NCBI RefSeq assembly: GCF_900095195.1
Contig: NZ_LT606950.1
Location: 817,207 to 849,206 of the forward strand
DNA from: Polynucleobacter necessarius
GTDB taxonomy: Bacteria; Pseudomonadota; Gammaproteobacteria; Burkholderiales; Burkholderiaceae
DNA: 32,000 nt
Direction of reading: 5' to 3'
Each line of letters begins with the position of its first letter. The first letter of the stretch is position 1. The position numbers and the translations under genes are program-made. The notes under the pieces are model-generated. The model saw only the letters and a program-made list of their open reading frames with translations. It was not told the origin of the DNA and searched no databases. Of the stretch, positions 1 through 32,000 are shown piece after piece.

Positions 1-65
1 TTCAGCCCATGGAAGGATTGCTTGACGATCATTGGCAACCATTGACTGGTTCATAATAGCTATCC

Positions 66-1136
66 ATGATCGATCGCTATTCCCTCTTACGCCCCTGGCT
101 CTTTTGCTTAGATCCCGAACAAGCGCATAACCTGACGCTCACGAACTTAGATCGAGCACGGCGCTGGGGATTTCTCAACAAGTTGGTTAGCAAACCGATT
201 TCGGATCCGCAAACTCTGTGCGGCATCACCTTCCCCAATCCTGTTGGACTGGCAGCGGGCCTTGATAAAGATGGTAAGCATATTGATGCGCTGGCTGCGC
301 TGGGTTTTGGTTTTCTAGAAATTGGCACCGTCACACCACGCCCTCAGCCAGGTAACGCAAAGCCTCGTATGTTTCGCCTGCCGCAAGCCCAAGCAATCAT
401 TAACCGTATGGGCTTTAATAATGATGGTGTAAAGGCCTGTGTAGCCCGCGTTCGTCGGTCAGGATTTTGGCAAAACGGTGGTGTTCTTGGTTTAAATATC
501 GGCAAAAACGCGACCACACCGATTGATGATGCAGCCAGTGATTACGTCATGGCCATGGATGCGGTCTATGACATCGCTACCTACATCACGGTTAACATCT
601 CCTCCCCCAATACACAAAATCTCCGGGTCCTTCAAGGTGAAGATATGCTCCGTGATTTACTGCGTCAATTAGGTGATGCGCGAAATCGTTTAAGCGATCG
701 CTTTGGAACGCGTAAGCCACTCTTTTTAAAGATTGCTCCCGACTTAGGTCAAGACGATGTTCATTTGATTGCCGATCTCCTGCTGGAGTTTGGTATTGAT
801 GCCGTGATTGCTACAAACACCACGATCGCACGCGATGCTGTTCAAGGCATGGAATATGGCGAGGAAACAGGCGGACTCTCTGGTGCGCCCGTTCGCGCTG
901 CATCCAATAAAGCCATTAGGGCTTTAAAAGCAAGACTAAAAGATCAACTTCCCATTATTGGTGTGGGCGGCATCATGAGTAGCGCTGACACTAGAGAAAA
1001 GATCATGGCGGGTGCAAGCCTAGTTCAACTCTATAGTGGACTGATTTATCGCGGCCCAGATCTTGTTAATGAGTGTGCCAAGGCGCTTAGACAGCCCATC
1101 CCAACGAAGAACCCTGAGCTCACTCGCCCTTGGTGA
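66..1136 (+). CDS. pyrD: dihydroorotate dehydrogenase (quinone), class 2
   Basis: 356-aa ORF. Family motifs are visible in the translation: [29 protein letters not shown], catalytic-Ser loop NISSPNT, GVGGI. Ends in TGA. Confidence 0.95.
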
Positions 1137-1234
1137 CGCCTGAGGGTTGCCCTAATTCCAAGCATATTGTCGGCGGTTCTATAAATGACGTTTCATAATA
1201 TGCAATACATCCTGAAATCGCTACAATATCGCCT

Positions 1235-2050
1235 ATGAGCACGGCCAAAACAGTCAAAACCACCAAAAATACTGGGGAAGTCGCCAAGACTGCCATCCAG
1301 GTGGTCGACCGTATGATGAATTTGCTCGATACCCTTGCCATACACGAAGAGTCGAGCAGCCTCAAGGCACTCGCTGAAGAAACGGGTCTCCACCCTTCTA
1401 CGGCTCACCGCATCCTCAATGGAATATGGTCCCTGCCGACTGGTTGAGCGTGGCGATGGTGGCCCTATAGACTGGGTTTAAAACTATTGGAGTTAGGCAA
1501 TCTTGTGAGAAAGCCCGCTTATCGGTTCGTGAAGCCGCTCAAGGTCCAATGCGCACCCTGCACAAGTTAACCGGTGAGACGGTTAATCTCTCAGTACGCC
1601 AAGGCGATGAAATTGTGTACATCGATCGCGCCTATAGCGAGCGTTCAGGCATGCAAGTGGTCCGCGCTATTGGAGGTCGCGCACCATTACATCTAACTTC
1701 CGTTGGAAAACTATTTCTGGCAAGCGACGATGCAAATCAGGTTCGCGCCCATGTGACTCGCACTGGCCTTTCTGGCCATACACGCAACAGCATTACCGAT
1801 TTAGCCAAACTCGAATCTGAACTGAAATCTGAACTGAATCATGTACGCAGAGTGGGGTAGCGCGCGAGACGATGAAGAGCTGGAGCTTGGCGTGAGTTGC
1901 TTGGCTGCATCCATCTTGGATGACACCGGCAAATTGGTAGCCGGCTTATCGCTTAGCGCCCCTACTGACCGTATTCAGGCAGATTGGTTGCGCTCCTTGC
2001 AAGACACTGCCCTTCAAATCTCCAAGAGCATGGGTTACAAACCTAAGTGA
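1235..2050 (+). pseudogene. IclR-family transcriptional regulator, multiply frameshifted
   Basis: ORF fragments 1235-1447, 1549-1860 and 1841-2050 together read as one IclR protein. The wHTH is LKALAEETGLHPSTAHRIL and the effector domain includes GETVNLSVRQGDEIVYIDR and DDEELELGVSCLAASI. Between about 1420 and 1545 the homologous reading (CRLVERGDGG / YRLGLKLLELGNLVR / RLSVREAAQGPMRTL) hops through all three frames. A further +1 shift sits in GGGG 1854-1857. Confidence 0.85.
1815..1838 (+). repeat. perfect 12-bp tandem duplication (atctgaactgaa x2) inside the IclR pseudogene
   Basis: Bases 1815-1826 are identical to 1827-1838. The duplication is in frame and yields ESELKSELNH where relatives would be expected to have a single SEL(N/K) unit. 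Confidence 0.9.
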
Positions 2051-2246
2051 ACCAGGCACCTCGGCCTAGAACCCAACCAGCGTTTTACCATCTACATTAA
2101 GCGACGAATCGGTTGCGCTCCTTGCAAGACACTGCCCTTCAAATCTCCAAGAGCATGGGTTACAAACCTAAGTGAACCAGGCACCTCGGCCTAGAACCCA
2201 ACCAGCGTTTTACCATCTACATTAAGCGACGAATCGGTTGCGCTCC
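1986..2246. repeat. perfect 125-bp tandem duplication plus 11-bp third partial copy
   Basis: Bases 1986-2110 are identical to 2111-2235 by base-by-base reading. The first 11 nt (ggttgcgctcc) recur at 2236-2246. The unit contains the IclR 3' end and stop, the 41-nt spacer, and the last 19 nt (including the stop) of the convergent endopeptidase gene. Confidence 0.97.
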
Positions 2247-3215
2247 CGATGGCATGCGCTCGTACCAATCGCGAACTCGCACTACATCAGCAAAACGCGA
2301 CTGCGTTCCAACCGAGCCCAAGAATACAAGCAAAAGTGGCGTATTGTTCACACGCGCTTGCATTACTAAACACTTGCCTGCCGCATTAATAAAGCCGGTT
2401 TTTTGCAGACCAATATCCATATCGCCTGAGCGCACCAATCGATTGGTGTTCAAGAATTTTTGTGGGCGCTTTGCAATGACCATTGTGAGATCTGGCCAAG
2501 TGGAATACTCACGAATCAATTTATATTGGTAAGCGGCATTGAGCATACGCGTTAAATCTTCGGCTGTAGCTACGTTATCGCTGAGCAAGCCAGTAGGATC
2601 AACAAAACGAGAATGGCCCATACCCAACTCTTTGGCCTTGCGATTCATGGCATCCACAAATGCAGGAATTCCGCCTGGGTAGTTTCGGCCTAAGGTATAG
2701 GCAGCACGGTTCTCAGAGGACATCAGCGCTAAGAGCAACGCTTCCTGACGCGTCAATACCGTCCCGCCAGCCAGGCGTGAGGTGCGATAAATGTGCACAT
2801 CGTCTGCATTGATCACAAGGGTTTCATCAAGCGGTAGTTTGGAATCGAGCACAACCATTGCTGTCATAAGTTTTGTAATGGATGCAATTGGCAAACTCAC
2901 ACCAGGATTTTTCTCAAAATACACTTCTTTTGTATCTTGGTTGACCACCATCGCCACGCTCGACTTTAAATTGAGGTCATCATGCTGACCACGCAGCCCG
3001 AGTGCGGTAGCTAATGATGGTGGTGCAGCGACGACTGGCTCATTAGAGCGCGTTACGGTAATGCGAACGATTTTGGGTTTTTTGGGAGATTTAACAACTA
3101 CTTTAGTGGTTTTGCTCGACTTGTCTTTGCTAGCGGCCAATGCTGGCGCCAAATGAAGTGATGCACCCGCAAACACAGTCGCAACAACTAGCAGCCAAAT
3201 ACGCTTCAAACCCAT
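2217..3215 (-). CDS. pbpG: D-alanyl-D-alanine endopeptidase/carboxypeptidase (peptidase S11, PBP7-like)
   Basis: The ORF track gives 2217-3245. The likely start is the internal ATG at 3215, preceded by gaagg..agggg, which gives the signal peptide MGLKRIWLLVVATVFAGASLHLAPALA. SxxK (SITK), SxN (SEN) and KTG motifs are all present. Confidence 0.85.
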   Translation of the reverse strand: MGLKRIWLLVVATVFAGASLHLAPALAASKDKSSKTTKVVVKSPKKPKIVRITVTRSNEPVVAAPPSLATALGLRGQHDDLNLKSSVAMVVNQDTKEVYFEKNPGVSLPIASITKLMTAMVVLDSKLPLDETLVINADDVHIYRTSRLAGGTVLTRQEALLLALMSSENRAAYTLGRNYPGGIPAFVDAMNRKAKELGMGHSRFVDPTGLLSDNVATAEDLTRMLNAAYQYKLIREYSTWPDLTMVIAKRPQKFLNTNRLVRSGDMDIGLQKTGFINAAGKCLVMQARVNNTPLLLVFLGSVGTQSRFADVVRVRDWYERMPSGAQPIRRLM

Positions 3216-3353
3216 CCCCTGATGACCTTCATAAACATTCAACATACGAGATGATAATTAATTTCCAATCGGGAGAGGCATTTTTACGCCCCAACTTGGG
3301 TTGGAGCCCCTACTCAGCAATCGTGGCGACCGTATCAGTCTGGCGGGCATTGA

Positions 3354-4171
3354 CTAAAACGACCCCGTCATCGTCAAGCAAAGACCTAAGGCCATCATCA
3401 GGGTAAATGGCTCATCAAATAAGAGCCAGGCCATCAGTGCCGTAGTTGGGGGTGTTAGATATAATAGGCTTGTCACTTTTGTTGACGCCCCTTTGCGGAT
3501 CATCATGAACAACAAACTGATTGACCCAATGGATAGCGGAAAGATTGCCCATAAAAGTGCTGTGATAACCGACGCATTCCAAACCATGACGCCCGATTCG
3601 AAGAAATGCATACAGATAAAAACAATATTGCTGAAACACCAAACTGAATCGATGACCCTGCTCGCAGATCAAAGACTGGGCAGAATTTCTTTTGGTACAA
3701 CGTGCCAAAGGTAATGGATAGCAACGCAATAAATGCCAACACATAACTTGCCACAGGAATATGCACAAAACCAATCTTCTCGGCAACGACCAAGGCAACG
3801 CCCGCAAAACCAAAACACAGTCCAATCCACTGGCGTGGGGTTGCCTTCTCTGAAATCCATGCTGCAAACCAAGCCGTCAAAATAGGTTGTAGGCCCACAA
3901 TGATGGCCACTAGACCTGCAGTCATTCCGAGGCGCACCGCAAACCAAACCCCTAATAAGTAGCCGAATTGCAGCAACATACCAGCCACTGCAATCAAAGC
4001 CACCTTTGGGGGTATTTCCGCCATAGCGGCAATCACACCAGCAAAGCGACAAAAGAGAAAGGTAGCTGGCTCAAACGTAGGGCATCGCCAAACGCACGAT
4101 AACGAACCCCGTACCGTACTCCAAATCAAGACAAAGATGGGTGCAATCGCCCTTTCTAGGCTGAGCTTCAT
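3354..4171 (-). pseudogene. EamA/DMT-family transporter, frameshifted
   Basis: The 222-aa ORF (3503-4171) and 85-aa ORF (3354-3611) are the two halves of one 10-TM EamA-type protein (LLYLTPPTTALMAWLLFDEPFTL in the C-terminal half). The frame switches near 3610-3640. In the N-terminus the homologous reading TGFVIVRLAMPYV lies in another frame (about 4075-4120), flanked by two compensating shifts. Confidence 0.8.
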
Positions 4172-4407: not shown

Positions 4408-4963
4408 ATGAACTTAACGCCAGAACAAATCGCGGCCGCGCAAAAAGCCAATTTAGAGACCTTAAGCGGGTTTAACCAGTCAAGCACTCCAAAGCATTGA
4501 GCGCTTAGTGGTACTCAATTTAGCGATTGCCAAACAAAGTTTGAGCGATAGCGTTAATAACGCCAAGAAAGCATTAGAAGTGAAAGATATTCAGCAACTT
4601 CTCGCCCATCAAGCGGAAACTGTTCAACCCATTGCTGAGAAAATTATTTCCTATAGTCGTCATTTATATGAACTGGCTCATGAAACACAAGATAGCTTTA
4701 CCAAATCTGCTGAGAAAGAATTTGCGGATGGTCAACAGAAGATGAATGTGCTCGTCGAAGAGTGGACTAAGCATGCTCCTCCAGGATCAGATGCCGCTGT
4801 TCAAGCACTTAAACAAGCAATTGCTTCTGCGAACAACGTTTATGAAACCAGTCAAAAAGCTGTCAAGCATGCTGTTGAGATTGCACAAACCAATATCAGC
4901 ACTGCAGCAGATGCTGTTGTCAAAACTGCTGGCGCTGCAAGCAAAGCCTCCAAGAAAAAATAA
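4408..4963 (+). pseudogene. phaP: phasin (PHA granule-associated protein), frameshifted
   Basis: ATG 4408, with RBS aaggga, opens the typical phasin N-terminus MNLTPEQIAAAQKANLETLS and hits TGA at 4498-4500. The continuation GLTSQALQSIERLVVLNLAIAKQ... lies in the +1 frame and joins the 151-aa ORF 4508-4963. The shift is at GGG 4468-4470. Confidence 0.8.
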
Positions 4964-5029: not shown

Positions 5030-6805
5030 TTAAGACTTTTTCTTGACCGGTGGTAAATCCGTGCAATGGCCATGCGCTGCTTCAGCAGCCAAGCCAACAG
5101 ATTCGCCAAGGGTTGGATGAGGATGAATGGTTTTACCAATATCCACTGCGTCAGCGCCCATCTCAATTGCTAGACAAACCTCACCAATTAAATCGCCGGC
5201 ATGGGTGCCCACAATGCCCCCACCAATAATGCGACGCGTCTTAGCATCGAAGATGAGTTTGGTGAAGCCTTCATCGCGACCATTAGCAATCGCTCGACCG
5301 CTGGCCGCCCAGGGAAATAAGCCCTTCTCATACGCGATACCCCGCGCCTTACATTGCTCCTCAGTCAGTCCTGCCCAGGCAACCTCCGGAGCGGTATACG
5401 CAACTGAGGGAATCTGTTTCACATCAAAGTACGACTTCTCACCCGCAACAGCCTCAGCAGCGACATGACCTTCATGTACCGCTTTATGCGCCAACATAGG
5501 TTGACCGACTAAGTCGCCAATCGCGAAGATATTGGGAATATTAGTACGCATTTGTTTGTCTACAGCAATAAAGCCGCGCTCATCCACGAGAACGCCTGCT
5601 TTATCAGCATCGATTTTCTTGCCGTTAGGTGTGCGCCCCACAGCAACTAACACAAGGTCATAGGTTTGTGGCTCAGCAGGCGCATTCTCACCTTCAAAGG
5701 TCACTTGAACACCATCAGGCTTGACCTCCGCTTTGGCAGCACGTGTCTTGAGCATGATTTTTTCAAAGCGACCGGCATTGAATTTCTCCCAGACTTTTTC
5801 TAAATCACGATCCGCGCCTGCCATTAGGCCATCCACCATCTCGGCGATATCAATCCGTGACCCCAAAGTGCTGTAGACCGTAGCTATTTCAAGACCAATA
5901 ATGCCGCCACCAATTACTAACATCCGCTTGGGAATGCTCTTAAGCAACAAAGCACCAGTGCTATCCACGATACGGGGATCCTCTGGCAAGAAAGATAATT
6001 TCACTGGCTGACTGCCGGCCGCAATAATGGCTTTCTGAAAACGCACCACTTCTTTTTGACCGGTGAGATCTTGACCATCGCCGCTCGTTAGCTGCACTTC
6101 AACATGGTTAGCATCCAAGAAACGTCCGAGCCCGCGTACAACTTTGACTTTACGAGCTTTTGCCATGCCCGCTAAGCCACCAGTCAATTTAGAAATGACG
6201 GATTCTTTATAGGCTCGCAACTGATCAATTTCAATTTTGGGCGCACCAAAAGTAATGCCATGCTTAGCCATCGTTTTTACTTCATCCATGACAGCAGCGG
6301 TATGCAACAAAGCTTTTGATGGAATACAACCAACATTCAAACACACACCACCCAAGGTAGCGTAACGCTCAACCAATATGATGCTCATTCCTAAATCGGC
6401 GCTACGGAAAGCTGCGCTATAACCGCCAGGACCAGCACCCAATACCAACGTCTCGCATTCATGATCCACCTGGCCGTTGTACTGTCCCGCTTTTGGCGCC
6501 TGAGTAGGGGCTGGCGTGTTAACAATAGGAGCTGGAGTCGCGGCTGGCTTCGCTGCGGGGGCAGCTGCGCTAGCTTCTATTTCCGCAATTACAGAACCTT
6601 TACTGACTTTATCGCCTAACTTCACAGATAGGCTGGTAATGGTTCCAGCAGCATCTGCCGGAACTTCCATTGTTGCTTTATCAGACTCAAGCACCAAGAG
6701 GGGCTGCTCTTTTTCAATAACATCGCCTACTTTTACTAGCACCTCGATTACAGGCACGTCTGCGTAGTCACCAATATCTGGCACTAAGATAGTTTGCATC
6801 GCCAT
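5030..6805 (-). CDS. lpdA: dihydrolipoyl dehydrogenase (E3) with N-terminal lipoyl domain
   Basis: 591 aa. Contains lipoyl motif ESDKATMEVP, an Ala/Pro linker, FAD motif GAGPGGYSAAFR, redox disulfide GGVCLNVGCIPSK and C-terminal HPHPTLGE. Confidence 0.93.
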   Translation of the reverse strand: MAMQTILVPDIGDYADVPVIEVLVKVGDVIEKEQPLLVLESDKATMEVPADAAGTITSLSVKLGDKVSKGSVIAEIEASAAAPAAKPAATPAPIVNTPAPTQAPKAGQYNGQVDHECETLVLGAGPGGYSAAFRSADLGMSIILVERYATLGGVCLNVGCIPSKALLHTAAVMDEVKTMAKHGITFGAPKIEIDQLRAYKESVISKLTGGLAGMAKARKVKVVRGLGRFLDANHVEVQLTSGDGQDLTGQKEVVRFQKAIIAAGSQPVKLSFLPEDPRIVDSTGALLLKSIPKRMLVIGGGIIGLEIATVYSTLGSRIDIAEMVDGLMAGADRDLEKVWEKFNAGRFEKIMLKTRAAKAEVKPDGVQVTFEGENAPAEPQTYDLVLVAVGRTPNGKKIDADKAGVLVDERGFIAVDKQMRTNIPNIFAIGDLVGQPMLAHKAVHEGHVAAEAVAGEKSYFDVKQIPSVAYTAPEVAWAGLTEEQCKARGIAYEKGLFPWAASGRAIANGRDEGFTKLIFDAKTRRIIGGGIVGTHAGDLIGEVCLAIEMGADAVDIGKTIHPHPTLGESVGLAAEAAHGHCTDLPPVKKKS

Positions 6806-6822
6806 AAATCTATCTACCTTCC

Positions 6823-8112
6823 TTACAGGGTGGCACGACGGAAGTCGGCTAAGAGTTGAGCAATATAAACATTAAAGCGTGTCGCTAATGCCCCATCAAT
6901 TACGCGATGATCAGCAGATAACAATAGTGGGCAAATCAAGCGTGGCACAAATTGTTTACCGTCCCACACTGGCTTCATGGCAGCTTTACTAACTCCCAAA
7001 ATAGCAACTTCAGGCGCGTTCACAATGGGTGAGAAGTACGTACCGCCGATACCGCCCAGAGAGGAAATGGTGAAGCTCGCGCCCTGCATTTGATCAGGTT
7101 TTAATTTGCCATCACGCGCCAACGCAGCCAATTCAGAAGTTTCCTTGGCCAATTCAAAAATACCCTTCTTGTCAGCATCTTTAATGACTGGCACAATAAG
7201 ACCTGTGGGCGTATCTGCAGCAAATCCAATATTGAAATACTTCTTCAGGATTAAATCGTCACCATCGAGCGAGCTATTAAACTCCGGATATTTTTTCAAT
7301 GCCGCAACTGCTGCTTTCATTAAGAATGCGAGCATCGTAATCTTGACGCCCTTCTTCTCGTTCTCTTTGTTGATGAGTACACGGAATGCCTCTAAATCGG
7401 TGATGTCCGCATCCTCGTGATAAGTCACCGCAGGAATCATCACCCAATTGCGACCAAGATTGGCTGCAGTAAGTTTCTTGATGCGGTTTAGCGGTTGACG
7501 CTCGATCTCACCAAACTTCGTGAAATCTACTTTTGGCCAAGGAATGAGGTTTAGTCCACCGAGACTACCGCCACTAGGCGCAGCTGCAGGGCTACCCGCA
7601 CCACTACTCATTGCCGCCTTCACAAAAGCTTGCACGTCTTCTTGAGTAATGCGGCCTTTTGGTCCAGAGCCTTTTACTTGGGCAATCGTGACACCTAATT
7701 CGCGAGCGAACTTACGAACCGATGGACTAGCGTGACTAAAGGCAACATCCACTTGGGGCGCAGGATTACTTAACGGGGGAAGCGCAGGTGCTCTTGGAAT
7801 TGGAGGTTCAACAGCTTTTGCAGCAGCAGCACTTGGCGCTGGAGCGCTAGCAGCTGGTGCAGCAGAAGTAGACGCCCCTTCCAAGATAACCACTACAGAA
7901 CCCTCGGAAAGCGTATCGCCAGCTTTCACTTTGACTTCCTTGACAACACCAGCATGGGAAGAAGGCACATCCATTGTGGCTTTATCCGATTCCAATACAA
8001 CAATGGATTGCTCTTTCTCAACAGCATCACCAACTTTGACGAGCACCTCTATCACAGGAACGTCTTTGTAGTCACCAATGTCCGGTACTTTAATTTCAAT
8101 AATTTGACTCAT
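6823..8112 (-). CDS. aceF: dihydrolipoyllysine-residue acetyltransferase (PDH E2), single lipoyl domain
   Basis: 429 aa. Contains lipoyl domain (ESDKATMDVP), Ala/Pro-rich linkers, an E3-binding domain (SPSVRKFARELGV) and the catalytic motif DHRVIDGA. Confidence 0.93.
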   Translation of the reverse strand: MSQIIEIKVPDIGDYKDVPVIEVLVKVGDAVEKEQSIVVLESDKATMDVPSSHAGVVKEVKVKAGDTLSEGSVVVILEGASTSAAPAASAPAPSAAAAKAVEPPIPRAPALPPLSNPAPQVDVAFSHASPSVRKFARELGVTIAQVKGSGPKGRITQEDVQAFVKAAMSSGAGSPAAAPSGGSLGGLNLIPWPKVDFTKFGEIERQPLNRIKKLTAANLGRNWVMIPAVTYHEDADITDLEAFRVLINKENEKKGVKITMLAFLMKAAVAALKKYPEFNSSLDGDDLILKKYFNIGFAADTPTGLIVPVIKDADKKGIFELAKETSELAALARDGKLKPDQMQGASFTISSLGGIGGTYFSPIVNAPEVAILGVSKAAMKPVWDGKQFVPRLICPLLLSADHRVIDGALATRFNVYIAQLLADFRRATL

Positions 8113-8126
8113 GAATTGTTCTCACC

Positions 8127-10811
8127 TTAGACTGTCATTGGGTTTGGTTTAGATGGATCAATGCCATACTTCTTAATCGCCTCTGCTAGCTTCTGACGAT
8201 CCAGCCGACCTGCATCAACCAATGATCTCAACGCAGTCACAACCACCCAGCGACGATCGACTTCAAAGAAATCACGTAACTTTTCACGGGTATCGGAGCG
8301 TCCGAAGCCATCCGTACCCAATACTTCATAGCGACGACCCATGTGCTGAATTGCGGGACGAATTTGCTCTGCAAACAAACGCACATAGTCGGTTGCCGCA
8401 ACAATCGGGCCAGCGGTATCTTTAAAGCATTTCTCGACATGTGAAAGTACCGGGGTTGCGGTTGGATTGAGTAAGTTGGTCCGGTGAACAGCGTTCCAAT
8501 CACGACCTAGCTCAGTAAAGCTTGGACAACCCCACAGATCAGAAGCGATACCCCAATCTTTTTGGAGTAACTCTGCCGCTTCAATCACTTCACGGAAGAT
8601 TGTGCCAGATCCTAAGAGCTGTGCGCGCAATTTCGCATTCGCATCGCCAACTGACTTGAGTTTGTACATGCCCTTAATGATGTCTTTTTCAACACCTTTA
8701 GGCATAGCTGGATGCGCATAGTTCTCATTCATCAAGGTGATGTAGTAGTACACATCCTCCTGCACCTCTAGCATGCGACGCATACCATCTTGAATCACTA
8801 CAGCCAGTTCAAAAGCAAAGGTTGGATCGTAACTAATGCAATTCGGTACCGCCGCACTCCATAAATGGCTATGACCATCTTCGTGCTGCAAACCTTCACC
8901 ATTCAAAGTTGTTCTACCGGCTGTACCACCGAGCAAGAAGCCACGGCTACGCATATCGCCCGCAGCCCATGCCAGATCACCAATCCGCTGGAAACCAAAC
9001 ATCGAGTAGAAAATATAAAACGGCAACATCGGTACGCCATGCGTCGAGTACGATGTGGCGGCTGCGATCCAATCGCACATACCGCCCGCTTCATTAATAC
9101 CCTCTTGCAAGATCTGGCCAGTCTTATCTTCCTTGTAGAACATCAATTGATCATGATCTTCTGGGGTATAAAGCTGGCCCAATTGATTCCAAATGCCCAA
9201 TTGGCGGAACATTCCCTCCATACCAAAGGTGCGTGACTCATCAGGCACGATTGGGACCACGCGTTTACCAATGGTCTTATCGCGCACGATCGTATTGAGC
9301 ATGCGAACAAAAGCCATCGTGGTCGAAATCTCGCGACCCTCTGTAGTCGCCTCCAGTAGCGGTGCAAATGCATCTAACGCTGGCACTGGGAGACTCTCAG
9401 CTTTGGCACGACGCTGCGGTAAGTAGCCACCCAATTCTTGGCGACGCGCTTTCATGTACTCCAACTCAGGACTGCCTTCAGCGAATTTCACCAACGGCAT
9501 CTCTGCAAGTTGTTCGTCTTTTACAGGGATCTCAAAGCGATCACGGAAACGACGCACATCATCATCATTCATTTTCTTGGCTTGATGCGCAATATTCATG
9601 GCTTCGCCAGAGCCGCCCATGCCGTAACCTTTAATGGTGTGGGCCAAGATAACGGTAGGCTGATCTTTATGGTTTACTGCCGCATGAAATGCTGCATACA
9701 CTTTGAGTGGGTCATGACCGCCACGATTTAATTGCCAAATTTCATCATCACTCCAGTCGGCAACCAACGCTTTAAGTCCCGGCGTATTGAAAACCGTCTC
9801 GCGTACATACGCTCCGTTTTTGGCTTTCATGGTTTGGTACTGACCATCAACAATCTCGCCAAGACGTTGCATCAAGATCCCTTTTTTGTCGCGGGCAAAT
9901 AAGGCATCCCACTGACCACCCCAAACAACCTTAATCACATTCCAACCAGCACCACGGAACTCGCTCTCGAGTTCTTGAATAATTTTTCCATTGCCACGCA
10001 CTGGGCCATCCAAGCGCTGCAAGTTACAGTTGATCACAAAGATCAAGTTATCCAGCTTCTCGCGCCCCGCCATACCGATAGCACCTAATGATTCTGGTTC
10101 ATCGGTTTCACCGTCACCTAAGAATGCCCAAACTTTACGTCCCTGCTCTTGGATAAAACCACGACCACGCAAATACTTCATAAAGCGCGCTTGATAAATC
10201 GCCATAATGGGACCAAGGCCCATAGACACGGTTGGGAACTGCCAAAAATCTGGCATCAACCATGGATGCGGGTAACTGGAGATTCCATTACCGCCCACTT
10301 CTTGACGGAAGTTATTCAATTGATCATCGGTTAAACGACCCAACATGTACGCGCGGGCATACACTCCAGGCGCAGAGTGGCCTTGAACAAATATCAAATC
10401 GCCGCCATGCTTAGGAGATGGAGCATGCCAGAAATGGTTGTAACCAACGTCATATAAAGTCGCAGCAGATTGGAATGAAGAAATGTGTCCGCCAACGTTT
10501 GTATCTTTATTAGCACGCAGCACCATTGCCATGGCATTCCAACGTGTGTAGGAACGAATATGATGCTCGACATTTTGATCACCTGGTAGTCGCGCCTGAT
10601 TCTCAACTGGAATCGTATTGATGTATGGCGTCTCCGCATGGAACGGTTGATTTACACCATTCACACGCGCATGCGAAATTTGCTGATCAATTAAATAAGC
10701 AGCACGTTGCGGCCCTTCGTTATGAATGACACCGTCTAATGCTTGCAGCCATTCTTGTGTTTCAACGGGATCGGCATCATTGCCCAATACTTTGTCAGGA
10801 ACTGCAGCCAT
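8127..10811 (-). CDS. aceE: pyruvate dehydrogenase E1 component (homodimeric type)
   Basis: 894 aa with ThDP-binding motif GDGETDEPES..N. It lies immediately upstream of aceF-lpdA on the same strand. Confidence 0.95.
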   Translation of the reverse strand: MAAVPDKVLGNDADPVETQEWLQALDGVIHNEGPQRAAYLIDQQISHARVNGVNQPFHAETPYINTIPVENQARLPGDQNVEHHIRSYTRWNAMAMVLRANKDTNVGGHISSFQSAATLYDVGYNHFWHAPSPKHGGDLIFVQGHSAPGVYARAYMLGRLTDDQLNNFRQEVGGNGISSYPHPWLMPDFWQFPTVSMGLGPIMAIYQARFMKYLRGRGFIQEQGRKVWAFLGDGETDEPESLGAIGMAGREKLDNLIFVINCNLQRLDGPVRGNGKIIQELESEFRGAGWNVIKVVWGGQWDALFARDKKGILMQRLGEIVDGQYQTMKAKNGAYVRETVFNTPGLKALVADWSDDEIWQLNRGGHDPLKVYAAFHAAVNHKDQPTVILAHTIKGYGMGGSGEAMNIAHQAKKMNDDDVRRFRDRFEIPVKDEQLAEMPLVKFAEGSPELEYMKARRQELGGYLPQRRAKAESLPVPALDAFAPLLEATTEGREISTTMAFVRMLNTIVRDKTIGKRVVPIVPDESRTFGMEGMFRQLGIWNQLGQLYTPEDHDQLMFYKEDKTGQILQEGINEAGGMCDWIAAATSYSTHGVPMLPFYIFYSMFGFQRIGDLAWAAGDMRSRGFLLGGTAGRTTLNGEGLQHEDGHSHLWSAAVPNCISYDPTFAFELAVVIQDGMRRMLEVQEDVYYYITLMNENYAHPAMPKGVEKDIIKGMYKLKSVGDANAKLRAQLLGSGTIFREVIEAAELLQKDWGIASDLWGCPSFTELGRDWNAVHRTNLLNPTATPVLSHVEKCFKDTAGPIVAATDYVRLFAEQIRPAIQHMGRRYEVLGTDGFGRSDTREKLRDFFEVDRRWVVVTALRSLVDAGRLDRQKLAEAIKKYGIDPSKPNPMTV

Positions 10812-13539: not shown

Positions 13540-14133
13540 ATGAACTTGAGCGCAACTACTAAACCAAACCAGGCCGAAGTTGTCTACGTAGTAGATGATG
13601 ATGAAGCCGTTCGTGACTCGCTCACTTGGTTGTTAGAGAGCAATGGCTATGTTGTGCGCTGTCATGCAAGCACAGAACGCTTCTTGCAATCTTTGCAAAG
13701 TACCGATAAATCGACAATTTCGTGCACCATCCTGGATGTGCGTATGCCTGACATGTCTGGCCTGGAATTGCAAGAGCGGCTCATCAGCGAAAACTTACCA
13801 ATGCCAGTCGCATTCATCACAGGTCACGGCGATGTCTCGATGGCCGTTTCGACCATGAAACGCGGTGCAGTGGATTTCATTGAAAAACCATTTAAAGAGA
13901 ATGATCTTTGCGGTTTAGTCGATCGCATGTTAGCCAAAGAGCGCGTGGATTACTCCCAAGCGAGCCAGCGCAAAATTACGCAAAGCCTATTAGGCAAGTT
14001 AACTGGGCGTGAGCGCCAAGTTCTGGAACGCATCGTGGCTGGACGCTTAAACAAGCAAATTTATGGAAAAGCTCAACGTCAATACCGTTCGGACTTGCTG
14101 CGTCTTGCCTTGTCTGACCCACAACCGAATTAA
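13540..14133 (+). pseudogene. FixJ/LuxR-type response regulator with damaged HTH
   Basis: The receiver domain is intact (DDDEAV, LDVRMPDMSG, TGHGD, KPF). In the output domain, LTGRERQVLERIVAGRLNKQI is followed by a missing stretch at about 14060-14062. Then MEKLNVNTV is encoded out of frame (14062-14088), and the original frame resumes at SDLLRLAL. The ORF stays open only because the two indels compensate. Confidence 0.7.
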
Positions 14134-17768: not shown

Positions 17769-17795
17769 CGATGCGCGTTCAACAAAATTATTACT

Positions 17796-22851: not shown

Positions 22852-23717
22852 CTAGACAATATCGTGAATTTCATAGCCCAGTTCTTGAGTGCCCGTTCTG
22901 AGGGCAATCCACGCACCTTCAAGGAGATTGGCGTTGCCTTTGATACCTAATTCAATATGGCGCTGGGCGTATACCCCGCCTTTGCTGGAGTCTCCTACTG
23001 AGGGCAGACTTAAATACCTTAACCCCCAGAAAGCTGGCCTCAATCCGCTCCATCAAGGGGGTCAAAGTGGATTCAATGCCCTTGGGAACAATGAAGCTTT
23101 GTTCAGCCCAATTTTCTCGATGAAAGAGATCTTGGTAATGCGTGTCCAGGCACCATGCCATCATCGGTGCAGCCATCACTAGGAAACCCGGCAAAAAGTG
23201 ATGTTCTCGAATCCGAAATCCTGGAATTTGGTTATAGGGGTTCAGAATGATTTCGCTACCAAGCGGAAACTCACCCATCTTGAAGCGCTGTTGATTCTCT
23301 GGAGTGCTTAAATCTGACTTGATTGGATCGCCCTCCGCCATCGACTGAATGCGCCCAGCAATCAACTCTCCCGCGGTTGGATGCAATTCGGTTTTTGTGC
23401 CTAGGGCAAGTGCCGCACATTGGCGAGTGTGATCATCCGGTGTAGCACCAATCCCACCCAGTACTAAACACCACATCGCCACTAGCAGAACTGTCTTTCA
23501 GGGTTGCGGTAATTTGCTCAGGATCATCTGCAACATATTTAGCCCAAGATAGACTCAAGCCACGCTCATTGAGCAACTCAATCAGCTTACTCAGATGTTT
23601 ATCTTGGCGACGACCTGACAAAATCTCATCACCAATCACAATCAAACCAAATCGTCTAGATGGGTAGCCATCAGACTCGGGAGCATCCACTGCGACTGTT
23701 CTCACTACATCATTCAT
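22852..23717 (-). pseudogene. CinA-like molybdopterin-binding (MoCF-biosynthesis domain) protein, two frameshifts
   Basis: Three fragments read consecutively: MNDVV..GLIVIGDEILSGRRQDKH..GDVVFSTG | GIGATPDDHTRQCAALALG...FLGVKV | SLPSVGDSSKGGVYAQRHIELGIKG..HDIV*. The shifts are at sense-strand GGG (plus 23457-23459) and around 23011-23018. Confidence 0.8.
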
Positions 23718-23721: not shown

Positions 23722-24591
23722 TTAACCATGATTTGGAAGTTCGGAGTCCGCAACACGCGCATGGACCGCGAGGGATTTCTCCAACTCTTCTTGTCTAAGA
23801 GCCTGTAAGGCATCTAGCAAAAAGTGGCTGAACCAGAGCGCTGCAAACACAAAGATTAGGGAGTAAATCCAGAGAGCAACAAAGCTCACGATCGGAAACA
23901 ATACCAATGCCAGCGCAGAGGTTGCCCAGAAAAACGTCGGTACTGCACCCAACATACCCGCAACCACGCCCATCGTCAGCAAAGGCCAACGATACTTCTC
24001 CAGTAATAAGTCACGCTCTTCTACGCTGGCATGTTTGGCCAATACGTCATAGGACATCAGTCGCATCGTCAGCCAGCCCCACAATAATGGCGGAAGAACG
24101 GCGACCAATGGTGGCACCCACCACACGGGCAACGTCAGCAGCACCAAGACTAGGCAAATCAGCGCAGACCATAAGGTGTAAACCAGACTTCCAAAAAAGC
24201 CGCTGCCTCGCTTGCATTCCAATCCCTGATACGCAGGTTGACGTGCAACTACATTCACAATAGCGGGCACGGTAGAGAAAGCAACGAATACCAGAAGGCT
24301 AATTGTGATGAGCGGAATGATCAGCATTACAAAAAATAGCGGAGCAATCCATGCTCGGGCGTTATCAAAGCCTGCCCAGATCAATCCCTCCTGAGTCCAG
24401 CTAGTGAAGATCGACGTCGTGAGAAAAATACTGAGGGCCTCTAATGCAGGAGTCCATGTTAACCAAATCAAGACGCCCCATAACACCGCGACAATCAAAA
24501 AGGGTCGCAGACTCAACCACAGCATGCGGGGATGCATGGTTCCTACTAGGGCAAGCCCAAACGATTTAAATACTTGTTGCAACCCAACCAT
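23722..24591 (-). CDS. EI24/CysZ-like multi-pass membrane protein
   Basis: Open frame with several predicted TM segments. The probable start is ATG 24591, behind gggag; the ORF track starts at TTG 24603. The family assignment comes from overall sequence character only. Confidence 0.55.
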   Translation of the reverse strand: MVGLQQVFKSFGLALVGTMHPRMLWLSLRPFLIVAVLWGVLIWLTWTPALEALSIFLTTSIFTSWTQEGLIWAGFDNARAWIAPLFFVMLIIPLITISLLVFVAFSTVPAIVNVVARQPAYQGLECKRGSGFFGSLVYTLWSALICLVLVLLTLPVWWVPPLVAVLPPLLWGWLTMRLMSYDVLAKHASVEERDLLLEKYRWPLLTMGVVAGMLGAVPTFFWATSALALVLFPIVSFVALWIYSLIFVFAALWFSHFLLDALQALRQEELEKSLAVHARVADSELPNHG

Positions 24592-24635: not shown

Positions 24636-26715
24636 TTACTTTGGCAATAGCTCTCGTACAGCGTGAACTAGGCCTTGCCATTGCTGCGTAGAGATATTAA
24701 GCAACCTTCTCCACCCATTGTGGCTCAATTTTGGCAATGGTGCGAGCGTACATGCGATTGGTTTCTTGGAGCTCCCCCGCCAGAATCCAAGCACCCGCCT
24801 TTTTACCAATCGTTGAGCCCGGCCAAATAAATGGACGTATTCCTCGAGCGCCCACATAACCGCCAGTTTTACTATTACGATCTTGTGACTTTTCATCTTC
24901 GTCTTTTTTAGCAACATAGCCCAATAGACCAGTGAGTAAAGCCAAGTGAATTTGTTCATAAGTCGCAGGTGTGCCATTCTCTTTCCACCCTTTTTCACCC
25001 AGCATGGTATGCAACTGCCCATGAACATCACGCCACTCTCACAAGCGTCTAGGCGATAAAAATTTACTGCGGCATAAATTTTCGAGCTGACGATTGCTGT
25101 GCTTGTGCTGTAATGCGTCCTGATACCAATCCCAAAGTTTTACAAAACTCAAAAATTCAGAACGCTCATCAGCAAACTGCAGATGCGCTTAATCAGCAGC
25201 TGCGCCCTGATCCATCGGTCACTCACGCGGATCTTGGGTGGCTAATGCGGATGCAATGATGGTGACCTCTCGGAGAGCATTTTGCTCTTTGGCGGCCAGC
25301 AACATCCTTCCTATACGCGGGTCTAGTGGCAAATCCGCTAATTGCTTACCAATCTGCGTGAGCTTAAATGAATGATGAAGCTCTTTCGCATCGGCCACTG
25401 ATGGCGCTTCGTATTCAATAGCACCCAGCTCATCCAATAGTTGCACGCCATCGGCAATTGCCCTGCCGAGTGGTTTATCTATAAATGGAAAGTGCTGAAT
25501 CTGCGGCAAGCGTAATGCACTCATGCGCAGCAAGACGGCTGCTAAAGAGCTACGCAAAATCTCGGGATCAGTAAATCTAGGACGACTTTGAAAATCTGCT
25601 TCGCTATATAGGCGCACACAAATACCATCCGCAACACGACCGCAACGTCCAGCACGTTGATTGGCAGCAGCTTGTGAAATGGGCTCTATCTGGAGTTGCT
25701 TCACCTTATTGCGGTAGGAGTACTGCTTTACTCTAGCCAAGCCACTATCAATCACATAGCGAATGTTGGGAACAGTGAGAGATGTTTCCGCAACGTTGGT
25801 AGTCAAAATAATGCGACGCCCATTACCGGGTGAAAAGACCCGCTCTTGCTCAGCTACCGACTGGCGCGCAAACAAACTAAGCACCTCAGGATGAAGGCGT
25901 TGTTGCAGCACATGGTCTTTACGCAATGCTTCAGCGCAATCCCGAATCTCCCGCTCTCCTGGTAAAAAAACCAGGACATCTCCCGATCCTGCCGAACCTT
26001 CTCGCCAAACCTTCGCGATTTCTTCGGCAACCGCCTCTGGAATTTCCTTAGCAGCCTTGGATTCTTTCTTGCTATCGGGCTCTAGGGGTGCGTAACGCTG
26101 CTCTACTGGAAATAATCTGCCACTTACCTCTATGACGGGGGCCACCTTGCCATTCAGTGCAAAGTGCTCGGCAAAACGTTGGGCGTCAATCGTTGCAGAA
26201 GTAATGATGAGCTTAAGGTCAGGCCTCTTAGGCAGCAGTTGACGCAAGTAACCCAACAAAAAATCAATATTGAGGCTACGTTCGTGCGCTTCGTCGATGA
26301 TGAGAGTGTCATACGCTTTTAATTGGGGATCGCGCTGCGTCTCAGCCAGCAAGATGCCATCGGTCATCAACTTGATGGAAGCGCCTTGAGTCGTTTTGTC
26401 GGCAAAGCGGACTTGATACCCCACATCTTGACCAATTGGCGTGCCCAACTCTTGCGCAATGCGTTTTGCCGGAGCGGTAGCAGCAATACGGCGGGGTTGC
26501 GTGTGGCCAATCAGCTTTCCGCCATTGATCGTCCCGCGACCGAGATCAACACAGATCTTGGGTAGCTGCGTGGTTTTACCGGAACCCGTCTCACCGCACA
26601 CAATGACTACTTGGTGGCTTTGCAAGGCATCTTTGATCAGTGGCCGCTGACCAGAGACTGGCAATTCTTCTGGAAAGCGGATCTCTAAGCGCCGTCCGGT
26701 GTTGGAAGCAGACAC
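24636..26715 (-). pseudogene. hrpA: ATP-dependent RNA helicase HrpA, nonsense-disrupted and 3'-truncated
   Basis: GTG start at 26715. DEAH-box motifs are intact (GETGSGKTTQ, DEAHERS, TSATID, TNVAETSLTV, QRAGRCGR). In-frame TGA 25219-25221, TAA 25189-25191 and TGA 25039-25041 occur in a single continuous frame that continues through ...FIWPGS..ILAGELQETNRMYARTIAKIEPQWVEKVA to TAA 24697-24699. A possible frameshifted remnant runs to about 24636. Nothing corresponding to the C-terminal roughly 500 aa of full-length HrpA is present. Confidence 0.88.
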
Positions 26716-26781
26716 AGCTTGAGAAATTGGCTTGGGTTTTTTGTTGGTTTATGGGCTCTTGCACCCTATAATTTTCTCACT

Positions 26782-28526: not shown

Positions 28527-28532
28527 ATAGAC

Positions 28533-28713: not shown

Positions 28714-29424
28714 TTAATAAGTCAGTCGGCTGACGCCAGTGGCATTACTTACCAATAAAACATTGGCCTTCTCTTTTGCAAAGAGGCCAACGGTAATGAC
28801 GCCAGCAATTTGATTGATTTGTGACTCTAATTGAAGGGGATTGGCTATTTGCAATCCCGCGACATCCAATATCCATCCTCCATTATCGGTAACGAACGGC
28901 TCGCTAGCGGTTTGGCCCAGATCCGCACGCGTACTTTTCGCGAGGCGTAAGTTGACCGTTCCACCCAACTTCTCGAGCTCACGGCTCACAACGCCTTTTG
29001 CAAGCGGAATACTTTCCACGGGAAGCGCAAAGTTACCGAGCACAGGTACTTGCTTAGACGAATCGCAGATACAGATAAATTGCTTTGCCATGGAGGCGAT
29101 GATTTTTTCGCGCGTCAACGCCCCACCACCGCCCTTAATCATATGACCCAAAGAATCAATTTCATCCGCACCATCAACATAGGCTGGCAGACTCACTACA
29201 TCATTGGGGTCAAGCACCTTGAAGCCATGCATCAGCAAACGCTCGGTGGTGGCATTCGAACTGGATACGGTGCCAGCAAAATGATCCTTGTGCGGAGCCA
29301 ATGCATCAATAAAGCAATTCGCGGTAGAACCCGTTCCAACGCCCAAGATTTGACCTGCGGGTAGCTTTAGTACTTCATCTCTTGCGGCTTCGCCCACCAT
29401 TTGCTTGAGTTGATCCTGATTCAT
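28714..29424 (-). CDS. rpiA: ribose-5-phosphate isomerase A
   Basis: 236 aa with motifs [15 protein letters not shown] and [12 protein letters not shown]. Confidence 0.93.
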
Positions 29425-30486: not shown

Positions 30487-30490
30487 AACA

Positions 30491-30515
30491 AAAACCACCC
30501 GCAGGTGGTTTTTTT
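30491..30515 (+). terminator. intrinsic terminator after tal
   Basis: aaaaccacc pairs with ggtggtttt around loop cgca, followed by a T-run to 30515. Confidence 0.85.
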
Positions 30516-30535
30516 AATTCCCCAAGATCTAAATT

Positions 30536-31818
30536 CTAGTTTTTGGGACAGGCGTTATCCAATGGTTTACCAGCAATACGGTCTTTTACCCAAGATACAT
30601 AAAACGGCTTCGATGATCCAGGTGTAGTGAAGAGCGATTGCTCGCCAGGCTATTGCATTCTGCCAATATTGCCACCCAATTTACAGGCTTGATCTTGATA
30701 CAACCTATGCATCGTGGGAGGCACGGCCGTATCCTTCGTGCCGAAATAGATTTGCACTGGGGCCATCGGCTTGACCAAAGGCACTCCGCCCTTGACTATC
30801 GCTTCAGCTTACGCCAATGTGTTGCTTGGATTTTGTTTTAACAAGCTTGCGAACGTCGATCCATAGTTAAAGTTAAATGTATCGCTGGCAGTATGCATGC
30901 ATTTATTACTATAAATCTCATTGGCGACCTTAACTCCATCATCAGTAAAGACGTCGGATAGTTTGAGATTTGAAAAAGCCGCTTGAGTGCCCCAATAAAA
31001 CATGGTTGCATGGGTAAAATTGAAGACACTGTCTGTGAACATTTTTTGCATTTCTTGGATATATTTATCGGCAGTAGCCTGATCCATTTTCCCTGCAGGA
31101 GCATATATCGTGATATCTTGCGGCGCCAAAGCGACAAATCCTAGAACGTCAAGATTATCAGCCGCAGTACCTGTTTTCTTGATGTAGTCAGGCATACCGG
31201 CCAAAGCAATTGCTGCTCCACCGCCTTGTGACTAACAATACACCAAGGTCTTCTTGTTGGCTCCAGTTTCTTTCATGGAAGCTGCAGCACTGGCAGCATT
31301 CATAGTACCCATACCATTCGTGGTGGATACACTGTATTGATGACGACCGCCACCGCCGAGACCTTAATAATCCGTTGCAGCAATGACGTACCCTTCTTTC
31401 AGAAATTCTTCTATCGCCGGAATTCCGTAATCCGTCCAGGAGTTACCACCCACCAAGAGGTACTCGTTTAGCGGCACCGCAGGATCAAGAATTTGGGATG
31501 GTCCACAGTTTTGGGCAGAGCCTGTTGTGCCGTGCGCCCAAGTTAAAATGGACGACTACCTGCCGGCGCAACTACCAAGCCTGTTGAAATGGTTTTGCGA
31601 CCTGAAATATCTGAAGAGATATAGGCAATTCTCCTTGCCTGTGTGCCTTTTAGTAATGTAGCAATCTTCTCTTGTTTAATCACTTGCCTTAATTTGCCAT
31701 CCGGAGTCATTTTCATGACTGCAGCATAGAAAGGTGGCACAGGCGGATCGGCATGAACTGCCGATACATTCAACCCAAGAACTAAACCAAGCGCGAAAGT
31801 GAAAAATATCTTTTTCAT
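30536..31818 (-). pseudogene. secreted lipase-family alpha/beta hydrolase (LIP-like), disrupted
   Basis: Signal peptide MKKIFFTFALGLVLGLNVSAVHA. A frameshift sits in the 4-nt homopolymer 31545-31548. The rest is a single frame reading ILTWAHGTTGSAQNCGPSQ..AATDY*GLGGGG..VYC*SQGGGAA... with internal stops TAA 31364-31366, TAG 31232-31234 (the codon directly before the nucleophile Ser of the xSQGG elbow), TAA 30809-30811 and TAG 30650-30652. It ends at TAG 30536-30538. Confidence 0.75.
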
Positions 31819-31862
31819 GTTTACCTCTAAGAAATTTCAATAGTTATTTAAAAAAATATTTT

Positions 31863-32000
31863 TTATTTATTGGATGTACTAATGCCTAACACGCTATAAG
31901 CTGGGCAATTACCAAGCATTCCCATGATCAACGGAACAATACCAATCCAAGCCCATGGGCCCGTAATACCAAAACCCGCTAAGCCCATTAGGGTAACGCC
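31863..32000 (-). CDS. DUF2892/YgaP-like small membrane protein, 3' part (runs off window)
   Basis: The minus strand reads GVTLMGLAGFGITGPWAWIGIVPLIMGMLGNCPAYSVLGISTSNK*, with the GxCPxYxxLG(I)xT C-terminal signature. It is absent from the ORF track because the start lies outside the window. Confidence 0.55.
   Translation of the reverse strand, partial: GVTLMGLAGFGITGPWAWIGIVPLIMGMLGNCPAYSVLGISTSNK

Follow-up and report, generated by a model that had tools for sequence, protein, structure and literature searches.

Very recent genome reduction has a textbook example in Polynucleobacter necessarius, for which free-living sister species are available for comparison, and many near-full-length pseudogenes lying among intact housekeeping genes, as described below, are likewise found in Mycobacterium leprae, although that organism belongs to another phylum, has another host and shows much older decay. 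Reductive evolution in P. necessarius was reportedly described by Boscaro et al. in 2013 (PNAS 110:18590) and 2017, and the latter study (Nat Ecol Evol 1:1160; title listed in PMC9837558) is said to have found parallel genome reduction, with independent Euplotes symbiont lineages losing the same functions.

P. necessarius has been reported to contain 'a large number of pseudogenes' (PMC5018217), with counts of 231-460 pseudogenes beside 1,279 CDS (PMC4285135) or 269 pseudogenes (PMC5632650), and an emended description limits the name to obligate endosymbionts of Euplotes (PMC5018217). Here we analyzed a 32-kb stretch of DNA (the window) from this species. Strain STIR1 (Boscaro et al. 2013; PMC4285135, PMC5018217, PMC5632650) resembles the source of the window in species name, lifestyle, genome size (∼1.55-1.56 Mb), hundreds of mostly recognisable pseudogenes and a gene content that is largely a subset of that of free-living relatives. 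It is a different genome; its YggX has 91 aa versus 90 aa in the window, and pseudogenes make up ∼36% of the window genes versus ∼15-26% genome-wide in STIR1 (computed from the counts in PMC4285135). Serratia symbiotica and Sodalis share with the window an early stage of reduction, many recognisable pseudogenes and elevated dN/dS (PMC4285135). Unlike the window, which shows point mutations, small indels and simple deletions and has no insertion sequence (IS) elements, both are IS-rich, and IS elements drive their gene inactivation and rearrangement (PMC4285135).

About one third of the genes in the window are disrupted

The window holds 25 complete genes and two partial ones at its edges. Synteny with free-living members, together with amino-acid identities of 75-96%, fits the genus Polynucleobacter. 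Exact look-up of 17 window proteins (ntrC, pyrD, folD, glnA, prlC, aceE, rpiA and tal among them) matched every one at 100% identity to RefSeq proteins of P. necessarius (TaxID 576610) that sit on a 1,550,368-bp contig. The organism call of an earlier note, made from the sequence alone, was therefore right. Its obligate life inside Euplotes is taken from the taxon name under which the record was deposited and from published work (PMC5018217).

Lesions were mapped by frameshift-aware protein-to-DNA alignment against intact orthologues from free-living Polynucleobacter. We also used sister strain E (ENA ERZ27248707), an independent assembly built from other samples, as well as three SRA runs in their Logan assemblies. 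Nine of the 25 complete genes, 10,194 bp altogether, are disrupted, bearing out the earlier estimate of about one third:

1235..2066, plus strand: IclR-family regulator pseudogene (Pfam HTH_IclR and IclR_C over three fragments)
3313..4171, minus strand: EamA transporter pseudogene (four frameshifts, near 4113, 4073, 3621 and 3361; 10-aa deletion)
4408..4963, plus strand: phasin pseudogene (one +1 frameshift, at 4468)
11036..13500, plus strand: PAS sensor histidine kinase pseudogene (alignment to the 840-aa orthologues of L001 and L084)
13540..14133, plus strand: FixJ/LuxR-type response regulator, an open 197-aa ORF (RefSeq WP_114662539, 'response regulator')
17165..17795, minus strand: GST-like pseudogene (six-frame reading; Pfam GST_N_3 at 2e-19)
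22855..23717, minus strand: CinA-like (MoCF_biosynth) pseudogene (+1 frameshifts at 23459 and 23011)
24699..26762, minus strand: hrpA (DEAH helicase) pseudogene (ends after residue 692 of 1352)
30524..31816, minus strand: secretory-lipase-like pseudogene (alignment to the 441-aa L001 orthologue; Pfam LIP, 6e-16)

The overall tally is about 20 frameshifts and, by alignment, 9-11 nonsense codons, in accordance with the ten internal nonsense codons counted before; the mixture of lesion types claimed with them (frameshifts, nonsense codons, an inversion, a tandem duplication, and large and small deletions) was found in full. The IclR gene carries five frameshifts (near 1433, 1465, 1509, 1855 and 2048) and a 12-nt insertion (1814-1825), and frameshift-aware alignment to L086 covers 271 of 274 codons at 94% identity. 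In the PAS kinase there are 5-6 frameshifts (near 11166, 11772, 11844, 12247 and 13353) and stops at 11377-11379 (TAG) and 11953-11955 (TGA). Within hrpA, a +1 frameshift at 26740 lies in an A run and stops occur at 25219, 25189 and 25039, while the lipase-like gene has a -1 frameshift at 31547 and stops at 31364, 31232, 30809 and 30650; its extra TAG at 30536 (reference residue 437 of 441) may be just an early natural stop. The description of the pseudogenes as nearly full length fails for hrpA, which is only half length.

Deletions of 53 nt and 1 nt in the response regulator (14062 and 14091), net in frame, leave it without the LuxR/GerE helix-turn-helix, and the protein probably no longer works as a transcription factor; calling it a pseudogene is a matter of judgement, since RefSeq annotates the 197-aa protein. 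The strain E counterpart is intact, with 215 aa and a GerE domain. The lone 1-nt lesion of the phasin gene, taken by itself, could be an assembly error. In strain E the gene has four lesions, all different from that in the window, and phasin was inactivated independently in the two strains. A 151-aa phasin fragment is present in the protein collection without a RefSeq accession. The broken genes would yield no functional product; the N-terminal HrpA ORF of 498 aa and the response regulator reduced to its receiver may retain residual function.

Interleaved with the disrupted genes are 16 intact ones, listed here with the two edge fragments:

1..47, plus strand: 3′ end of ate (arginyl-tRNA-protein transferase), window-edge partial (tblastn, L086 ATE orthologue aa 232-246)
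66..1136, plus strand: pyrD (RefSeq WP_114662533)
2217..3245, minus strand: S11 serine hydrolase, D-Ala-D-Ala carboxypeptidase family (Pfam Peptidase_S11; RefSeq WP_231968501)
5030..10811, minus strand: pyruvate dehydrogenase (PDH) operon, with lpdA 5030-6805, aceF 6823-8112 and aceE 8127-10811 (RefSeq WP_114662535, WP_114662537, WP_114662538)
14146-15000, plus strand: folD
15019-17154, plus strand: prlC/oligopeptidase A
17796-18644, minus strand: xthA
18637-20085, minus strand: ntrC
20082-21215, minus strand: ntrB
21230-22645, minus strand: glnA
23722..24591, minus strand: EI24/CysZ-family membrane protein (RefSeq WP_114662552)
26782-28146, plus strand: argA
28190-28462, plus strand: yggX (product 90 aa)
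28714-29424, minus strand: rpiA
29518-30486, plus strand: tal
31863..32000, minus strand: YgaP-like small membrane protein, window-edge partial (aligns to L093 12295-12432)

The housekeeping genes previously listed as intact (pyrD, the PDH operon, folD, prlC, xthA, glnA, argA, rpiA and tal) all are. Missing from that list were ntrB, ntrC, the S11 serine hydrolase, EI24 and yggX, so that decay has not reached every regulator in the window. The YgaP-like gene is called in L090 and L093. A search of the whole window found no tRNA, tmRNA or Rfam families.

Orthologues are intact in free-living relatives

Gene order in the window is the same as in free-living Polynucleobacter, where the comparable orthologues are all intact: IclR (274 aa), EamA (295 aa), phasin (184 aa), the kinase (840 aa), the response regulator (215 aa), the CinA-like protein (284 aa), hrpA (1352 aa) and the lipase (441 aa). 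Lesions shared with relatives, which the earlier note had regarded as fatal to its reading, were looked for, and the free-living orthologues proved intact wherever comparable. Interrupted orthologues number 0 of ∼20 in free-living relatives versus 9 of 26 here (Fisher p about 0.003, the denominator of 26 being the approximate gene total of the earlier note). No GST-like homologue was found outside the sister strains by tblastx against all loci retrieved.

A second, divergent symbiont genome, LT606949.1 (L093), which belongs with the 2017 study, has 74-76% nucleotide identity to the window. There, hrpA and the CinA-like gene are broken too, at positions that differ from those in the window, and a fatty-acid hydroxylase is called as fragments only. 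The hrpA gene of LT606949.1 is full length, whereas the window has lost half of hrpA and three neighbouring genes.

These comparisons bear on whether the decay is tied to symbiosis at all. It might instead have arisen in a free-living Polynucleobacter lineage, through a mutator phenotype or after a recent bottleneck, and sequence alone cannot reveal host association. We consider this very unlikely, as the proteins are deposited as P. necessarius, a name kept for obligate Euplotes endosymbionts (PMC5018217), and the contig measures 1.55 Mb versus 2.0-2.2 Mb in free-living relatives (PMC5018217). Moreover, in another P. necessarius symbiont genome the same genes decayed independently, and intact copies occur in all free-living relatives examined.

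Nearly identical strains differ in their lesions

Strain E is about 98% identical to the window (96-99%). It carries about 11 of the 34 lesions in identical form and has others of its own. Only about one third of the lesions are older than the split between the two strains. Common to both are the IclR frameshift at 1855, the PAS kinase frameshifts at 11844 and 13353, the CinA-like frameshift at 23459, the hrpA frameshift with two of its stops and all four stops of the lipase-like gene. In the EamA region of strain E, a further ∼305 bp is gone. Across the same regions, gene calls are fragmented in a similar way in the Logan assemblies of SRR32119647 and SRR8208349. Both lineage-specific and parallel losses occur.

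Between the two strains, indels occur at 6.9/kb in pseudogenes versus 0.29/kb in intact genes, a 24-fold difference (chi-square p = 3e-23), and 55 of the 62 pseudogene indels are not a multiple of 3. Substitutions per kb at the first, second and third codon positions are 18.5, 17.3 and 14.7 in pseudogenes, and 6.8, 5.9 and 14.5 in intact genes, where the third position predominates. Evolution is neutral in the pseudogenes, with purifying selection acting on the intact genes. The dN/dS of the intact genes, a check named in the earlier note, was calculated; the pooled value between strains, 0.31, is inflated by segregating polymorphism at short divergence and is no clean gauge of relaxed selection.

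The same data speak against the idea that the broken genes are still expressed, whether by programmed frameshifting, stop read-through, a variant code or phase-variable homopolymers (contingency loci). Some frameshifts do lie within A6, C6 or T5 runs, and long ORF fragments such as the 498-aa HrpA persist, but single genes carry up to 8 lesions of mixed type, all three stop codons occur among the broken genes, and two strains with 98% identity do not have the same set of lesions. An alternative code or programmed recoding was rejected because the 16 intact genes have no in-frame stops, indicating the standard code, and because substitutions are spread evenly across codon positions in the broken genes, indicating an unconstrained coding frame. 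We regard such expression as even less probable than decay outside symbiosis. Least credible of all, and effectively refuted as the earlier note had argued, are sequencing or assembly errors (e.g. homopolymer miscalls) in a genome that is otherwise normal: homopolymer runs do hold one third of the 1-2-nt indels and phasin has a single 1-nt lesion, but errors would be expected equally in intact and broken genes rather than 24 times denser in the latter, about one third of the lesions recur identically in an independent assembly from other samples, strain E has its own independent lesions in the same genes, and nonsense substitutions, a 137-bp inversion, a 125-bp duplication and a 3.2-kb deletion are atypical error types.

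Rearrangements, deletions and small indels

The inversion, duplication and large deletion (REARRANGEMENTS) were each confirmed, and all three events claimed before are real:

17342-17478: 137-bp inversion inside the minus-strand GST-like gene (blastn: reversed versus strain E, 97.8% identity)
1983-2107 and 2108-2232: tandem duplication, 2 x 125 nt (repeat search, 99% identical)
24698/24699: junction of a 3,230-bp deletion versus strain E

The inversion is specific to the window strain, the orientation in strain E being collinear with the GST-like coding sequence. On the minus strand, the N-terminal domain runs from 17795 to 17532 and the C-terminal part from 17353 to 17165, with the inverted 137 bp between them; Pfam matches to GST_C_2 and GST_C appear only once the inversion is conceptually reversed. 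The duplication, likewise specific to the window strain, reaches across the 3′ ends of both the S11 gene and the IclR pseudogene and is absent from strain E. The deletion took the C-terminal half of hrpA together with remnants of three genes (a YNCE-like beta-propeller, a polysaccharide deacetylase and a fatty-acid hydroxylase) that strain E retains; in P. sphagniphilus, hrpA and these three neighbours are all intact (4 of 4). No microhomology was found at the 3.2-kb deletion junction, leaving a repeat-mediated mechanism unsupported. Among strain differences >50 bp, 8 of 9 are deletions.

The longest stretch of the window outside any gene is ∼250 bp, and because of this no IS element fits; within the window, each stretch longer than ∼250 bp belongs to a gene or pseudogene that is in synteny with relatives. 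Insertion of an IS element or prophage was rejected since there is no unassigned space for one. The reported absence of IS elements holds within the window, which is too small a sample to show it for the whole genome. Homopolymer runs of >=3 contain 33% of the 1-2-nt indels versus 17% of bases, an enrichment of ∼2-fold with most indels outside runs. Of the earlier proposal, an early stage of reduction by point mutation and small indels, without IS elements, fits the window. Its appeal to slippage needs qualifying, homopolymers holding only about a third of the small indels.

Reductive evolution and the timing of gene loss

Taken together, the window very probably represents ordinary, ongoing reductive genome evolution in P. 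necessarius as an obligate cytoplasmic Euplotes endosymbiont. Genes dispensable inside the host, here the IclR regulator, the PAS kinase with its partner response regulator, the EamA exporter, phasin, the GST-like and CinA-like proteins, HrpA and the secreted lipase, would lose selective constraint and gather random substitutions, small indels (partly through short-homopolymer slippage) and occasional rearrangements and deletions. A deletional bias would then gradually erase the broken genes, and weakened purifying selection would hold those still needed: the PDH complex, pyrD, folD, prlC, xthA, glnA-ntrBC, argA, rpiA and tal. We infer that an intracellular lifestyle with small effective population size is the cause.

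The genome and its pseudogene load are already published, and no new principle emerges from the window. It offers a clean illustration, with pseudogenes scattered among housekeeping genes, a measurable lesion spectrum, a deletional bias and no involvement of mobile elements. The added value is modest: near-identical archive strains differ in their inactivated genes and could serve to time gene loss. Tentatively, and with somewhat less than even confidence, we suggest that public metagenome and SRA assemblies contain a natural population ∼98% identical to the symbiont and differing in dead genes; the host association of strain E is assumed. Should different Euplotes hosts harbour these strains, it would become possible to date, at a fine scale, in what order and how fast genes are lost at the very onset of endosymbiosis, with a resolution finer than that of published comparisons between divergent symbiont lineages.

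Retained genes vary between strains as well. The pattern in which regulators decay and core metabolism stays holds as a tendency, but ntrB and ntrC are intact in the window strain and broken in strain E. The ate gene is split in strain E, and a split in xthA is confined to the SRR32119647 strain. The aceE gene has an in-frame 12-nt deletion versus strain E, and the pyrD product is 356 aa rather than 344 aa because a 5-nt deletion took out the stop codon.

Gene content and lesions of the window

From an ORF listing, Pfam searches and alignment to relatives, the window (32 kb) was found to hold 25 complete genes, together with two partial ones that its edges cut. The intact set comprises pyrD, an S11 serine hydrolase gene, lpdA-aceF-aceE, folD, prlC, xthA, ntrC, ntrB, glnA, a gene for an EI24/CysZ-family protein, argA, yggX, rpiA and tal. 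Nine genes with a combined span of 10,194 bp are disrupted, in agreement with an earlier note made from the sequence alone, which had put the count at nine genes out of about 26, spanning about 10 kb:

1235-2066, IclR regulator
3313-4171, EamA transporter
4408-4963, phasin
11036-13500, PAS histidine kinase
13540-14133, FixJ/LuxR response regulator, adjoining the PAS histidine kinase
17165-17795, minus strand, GST-like gene
22855-23717, CinA-like MoCF-domain gene
24699-26762, hrpA
30524-31816, secretory-lipase-like gene

These nine genes uphold in part the claim that regulators and accessory functions decay while the core stays intact, but the regulators ntrBC and some accessory genes are intact in the window. 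The window has neither tRNAs nor Rfam families, and since its longest unassigned stretch is about 250 bp, no IS element fits, as the note had held.

Free-living references were P. sphagniphilus (loci L084 and L085), Polynucleobacter sp. AP-Titi-500A-B4 (L086), three Polynucleobacter loci (L002, L003 and L005) and a related MAG (L001); gene order in all of these matches the window, and none of their comparable orthologues is disrupted. Lesions were mapped with a purpose-written frameshift-aware protein-to-DNA aligner. The IclR gene carries a 12-nt insertion and five frameshifts, the EamA gene a 10-residue deletion and four frameshifts, the phasin gene a single +1 frameshift, the PAS kinase gene two stops and five or six frameshifts, and the CinA-like gene two +1 frameshifts, while hrpA has three stops, a +1 frameshift within an A run and nothing left beyond residue 692 of 1352, and the lipase-like gene has four to five stops and one -1 frameshift. 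The 9–11 nonsense codons mapped in the window pseudogenes bracket the ten previously reported. With hrpA, the response regulator (196 of 215 reference codons kept) and the GST-like gene, which lacks a reference, set aside, the pseudogenes keep 96–100% of reference codons at 57–94% identity, so that their description as nearly full length holds for most of them but not for hrpA.

The response regulator was rightly listed as damaged, but it is an in-frame casualty: its 197-codon frame is open, and the loss of 53 nt plus 1 nt has taken the recognition helix of the LuxR/GerE helix-turn-helix. In our judgement from the sequence, the product would be functionally dead. Residual function may nonetheless persist in this 197-aa protein or in a 498-aa fragment of HrpA, the two candidates for it. 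The GST-like gene reads on the minus strand in its N-terminal domain (Pfam GST_N_3, E = 2e-19) and at its C-terminal end, but on the plus strand over its central 137 bp (17342-17478); conceptual re-inversion of this segment yields GST_C_2 and GST_C matches above Pfam thresholds. Together with a tandem duplication (2 x 125 nt, 99% identity, at 1983-2232) and large and small deletions, every class of rearrangement claimed earlier was found. In sister strain E, an independent deletion of 122 bp has its left boundary within a few nt of the right breakpoint of the window-specific inversion (17478/17479), which could reflect a local breakage hotspot or coincidence.

Shared and private lesions in sister strains

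Contigs of ENA ERZ27248707 and of the Logan assemblies of SRR32119647 and SRR8208349 were reached through the closest homologue of pyrD (98% identity), and a fourth sample, SRR14234079, was found through an rpiA look-up. Strain E was built from three overlapping loci of a 62.8-kb ENA contig, merged into a 47.4-kb sequence that is collinear with the entire window at 96.4–99.1% identity. Sequencing error, by which the interruptions would be artefacts, is poorly supported, as the earlier note had argued, because about 11 of the 34 window lesions checked are identical in this independently assembled strain. The window lesions are real, and those in common include:

1855, IclR frameshift
11844 and 13353, kinase frameshifts
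23459, CinA-like frameshift
26740, hrpA frameshift, with two hrpA stops
four lipase stops

The remaining lesions are private to the window strain, and strain E bears its own, different ones in the same genes. Strain E retains an intact response regulator of 215 aa, GerE domain included, but its ntrB has four frameshifts and its ntrC one frameshift and a deletion of ~106 bp (L087 13496-15454 for the pair, against window 18637-21215), both genes being intact in the window; inactivation is therefore strain-specific. No lesion of the phasin gene is shared: the window carries one and strain E (composite 9771-10323) four different ones, so the gene was either inactivated independently in both strains or silenced earlier by a change invisible in the coding sequence. 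Only in the SRR32119647 strain is xthA split, into 102-aa and 163-aa ORFs (L088 5839-6687); the window and strain E both keep it intact. The strain E flanks beyond the window (L081 444-5792, L090 3510-3905) are equally decayed, with ate, an mgsA/rarA-like AAA gene, a chorismate-binding gene and malate synthase present there only as fragments.

Mutational spectrum

Eight of the nine differences above 50 bp between the window and strain E are deletions, of 53 bp and 3,230 bp in the window and of about 305, 236, 122, 106, 66 and 150 bp in strain E; the remaining one is the window's 125-bp duplication. The 3.2-kb deletion, which shows no microhomology at its junction, took remnants of the hrpA C-terminus, a YNCE-like propeller, a polysaccharide deacetylase and a fatty-acid hydroxylase. 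The genes lost are intact in P. sphagniphilus, fragments in strain E and absent from the window, thereby documenting the sequence from intact gene to pseudogene to deletion. Homopolymer runs of at least 3 make up 17% of bases and hold one third of the 1–2-nt indels. Slippage probably contributes, as the earlier note had proposed alongside point mutation, but it is not dominant, homopolymers accounting for a minority of small indels.

Selection on intact and disrupted genes

Between the window and strain E, the intact genes differ by 9.1 substitutions per kb (17,256 aligned bp) and by five indels (0.29 per kb); the only two of these whose length is not a multiple of 3 are at the pyrD stop codon. 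For the pseudogenes (9,002 bp), the figures are 16.9 substitutions per kb and 62 indels (6.9 per kb), 55 of them not multiples of 3, giving an indel-to-substitution ratio of 0.41; the two gene classes differ in indel density (chi-square p = 3e-23). Substitutions per kb at codon positions 1/2/3 are 18.5/17.3/14.7 in pseudogenes versus 6.8/5.9/14.5 in intact genes (p = 2e-4), and the pooled dN/dS of intact genes, which the earlier note had proposed to calculate, is 0.31, a value inflated by short divergence times. From these measures, the pseudogenes are neutral, evolving at about the synonymous rate, and the intact genes are under weak constraint, which is what a host-restricted bacterium should show. 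Recoding, under which the interrupted genes would still be read through, is poorly supported.

Compared with the sister strain, pyrD (1095-1136) has lost 5 nt and with them its stop codon, which added 12 residues (356 versus 344 aa), and RefSeq annotates the longer 356-aa protein. The essential PDH genes aceE (10778; 12 nt, 894 versus 898 aa) and lpdA (6475; 3 nt) differ between strains by in-frame indels. The highest dN/dS values, 0.96 for the S11 hydrolase (2217-3245) and 0.74 for pyrD (66-1097), rest on 10–12 substitutions and give only a hint of relaxed constraint.

Organism and parallel loss

Searched as a protein, ntrC matched at 100% identity a RefSeq entry of Polynucleobacter necessarius that lies on a 1,550,368-bp contig. 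By exact look-up, the products of the 16 intact genes, and the response regulator in its shortened form, are likewise RefSeq proteins of this species (TaxID 576610) encoded on that contig. The suggestion of a Polynucleobacter ciliate endosymbiont was therefore correct. The hrpA and phasin fragments match only unnamed gene calls without accession, as would be expected if RefSeq regards them as pseudogenes. An emended description limits the name P. necessarius to obligate Euplotes endosymbionts (PMC5018217), and decay of a non-symbiotic kind is poorly supported. One published count for P. necessarius is 269 pseudogenes (PMC5632650). Pseudogenes make up 36% of the genes in the window, against a genome-wide 15–26% for P. 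necessarius STIR1 as calculated from the counts in PMC4285135. The window shows exactly the published pseudogene-rich phenomenon, in a genome deposited within the same research line; the finding is sound but already known, and the earlier observation and interpretation are both correct, subject to the three refinements given above, on regulators and accessory genes, on the response regulator and on homopolymer slippage.

A second P. necessarius symbiont genome (LT606949.1, 1.70 Mb, locus L093) has only 74–76% nucleotide identity to the window. Its hrpA and CinA-like gene are broken at positions other than those in the window, and for its fatty-acid hydroxylase there are only fragmentary gene calls. 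Independently acquired symbionts are reportedly reduced in parallel, and the losses in this genome agree with that picture (Boscaro et al. 2017).

The lipase-like gene, flanked in the window by tal and a YgaP-like gene, is absent from this second genome (L093 12294/12295), and a single intact orthologue was found, placed between prlC and xthA in the related MAG (L001 12175-13500); its presence and position are variable within the genus.
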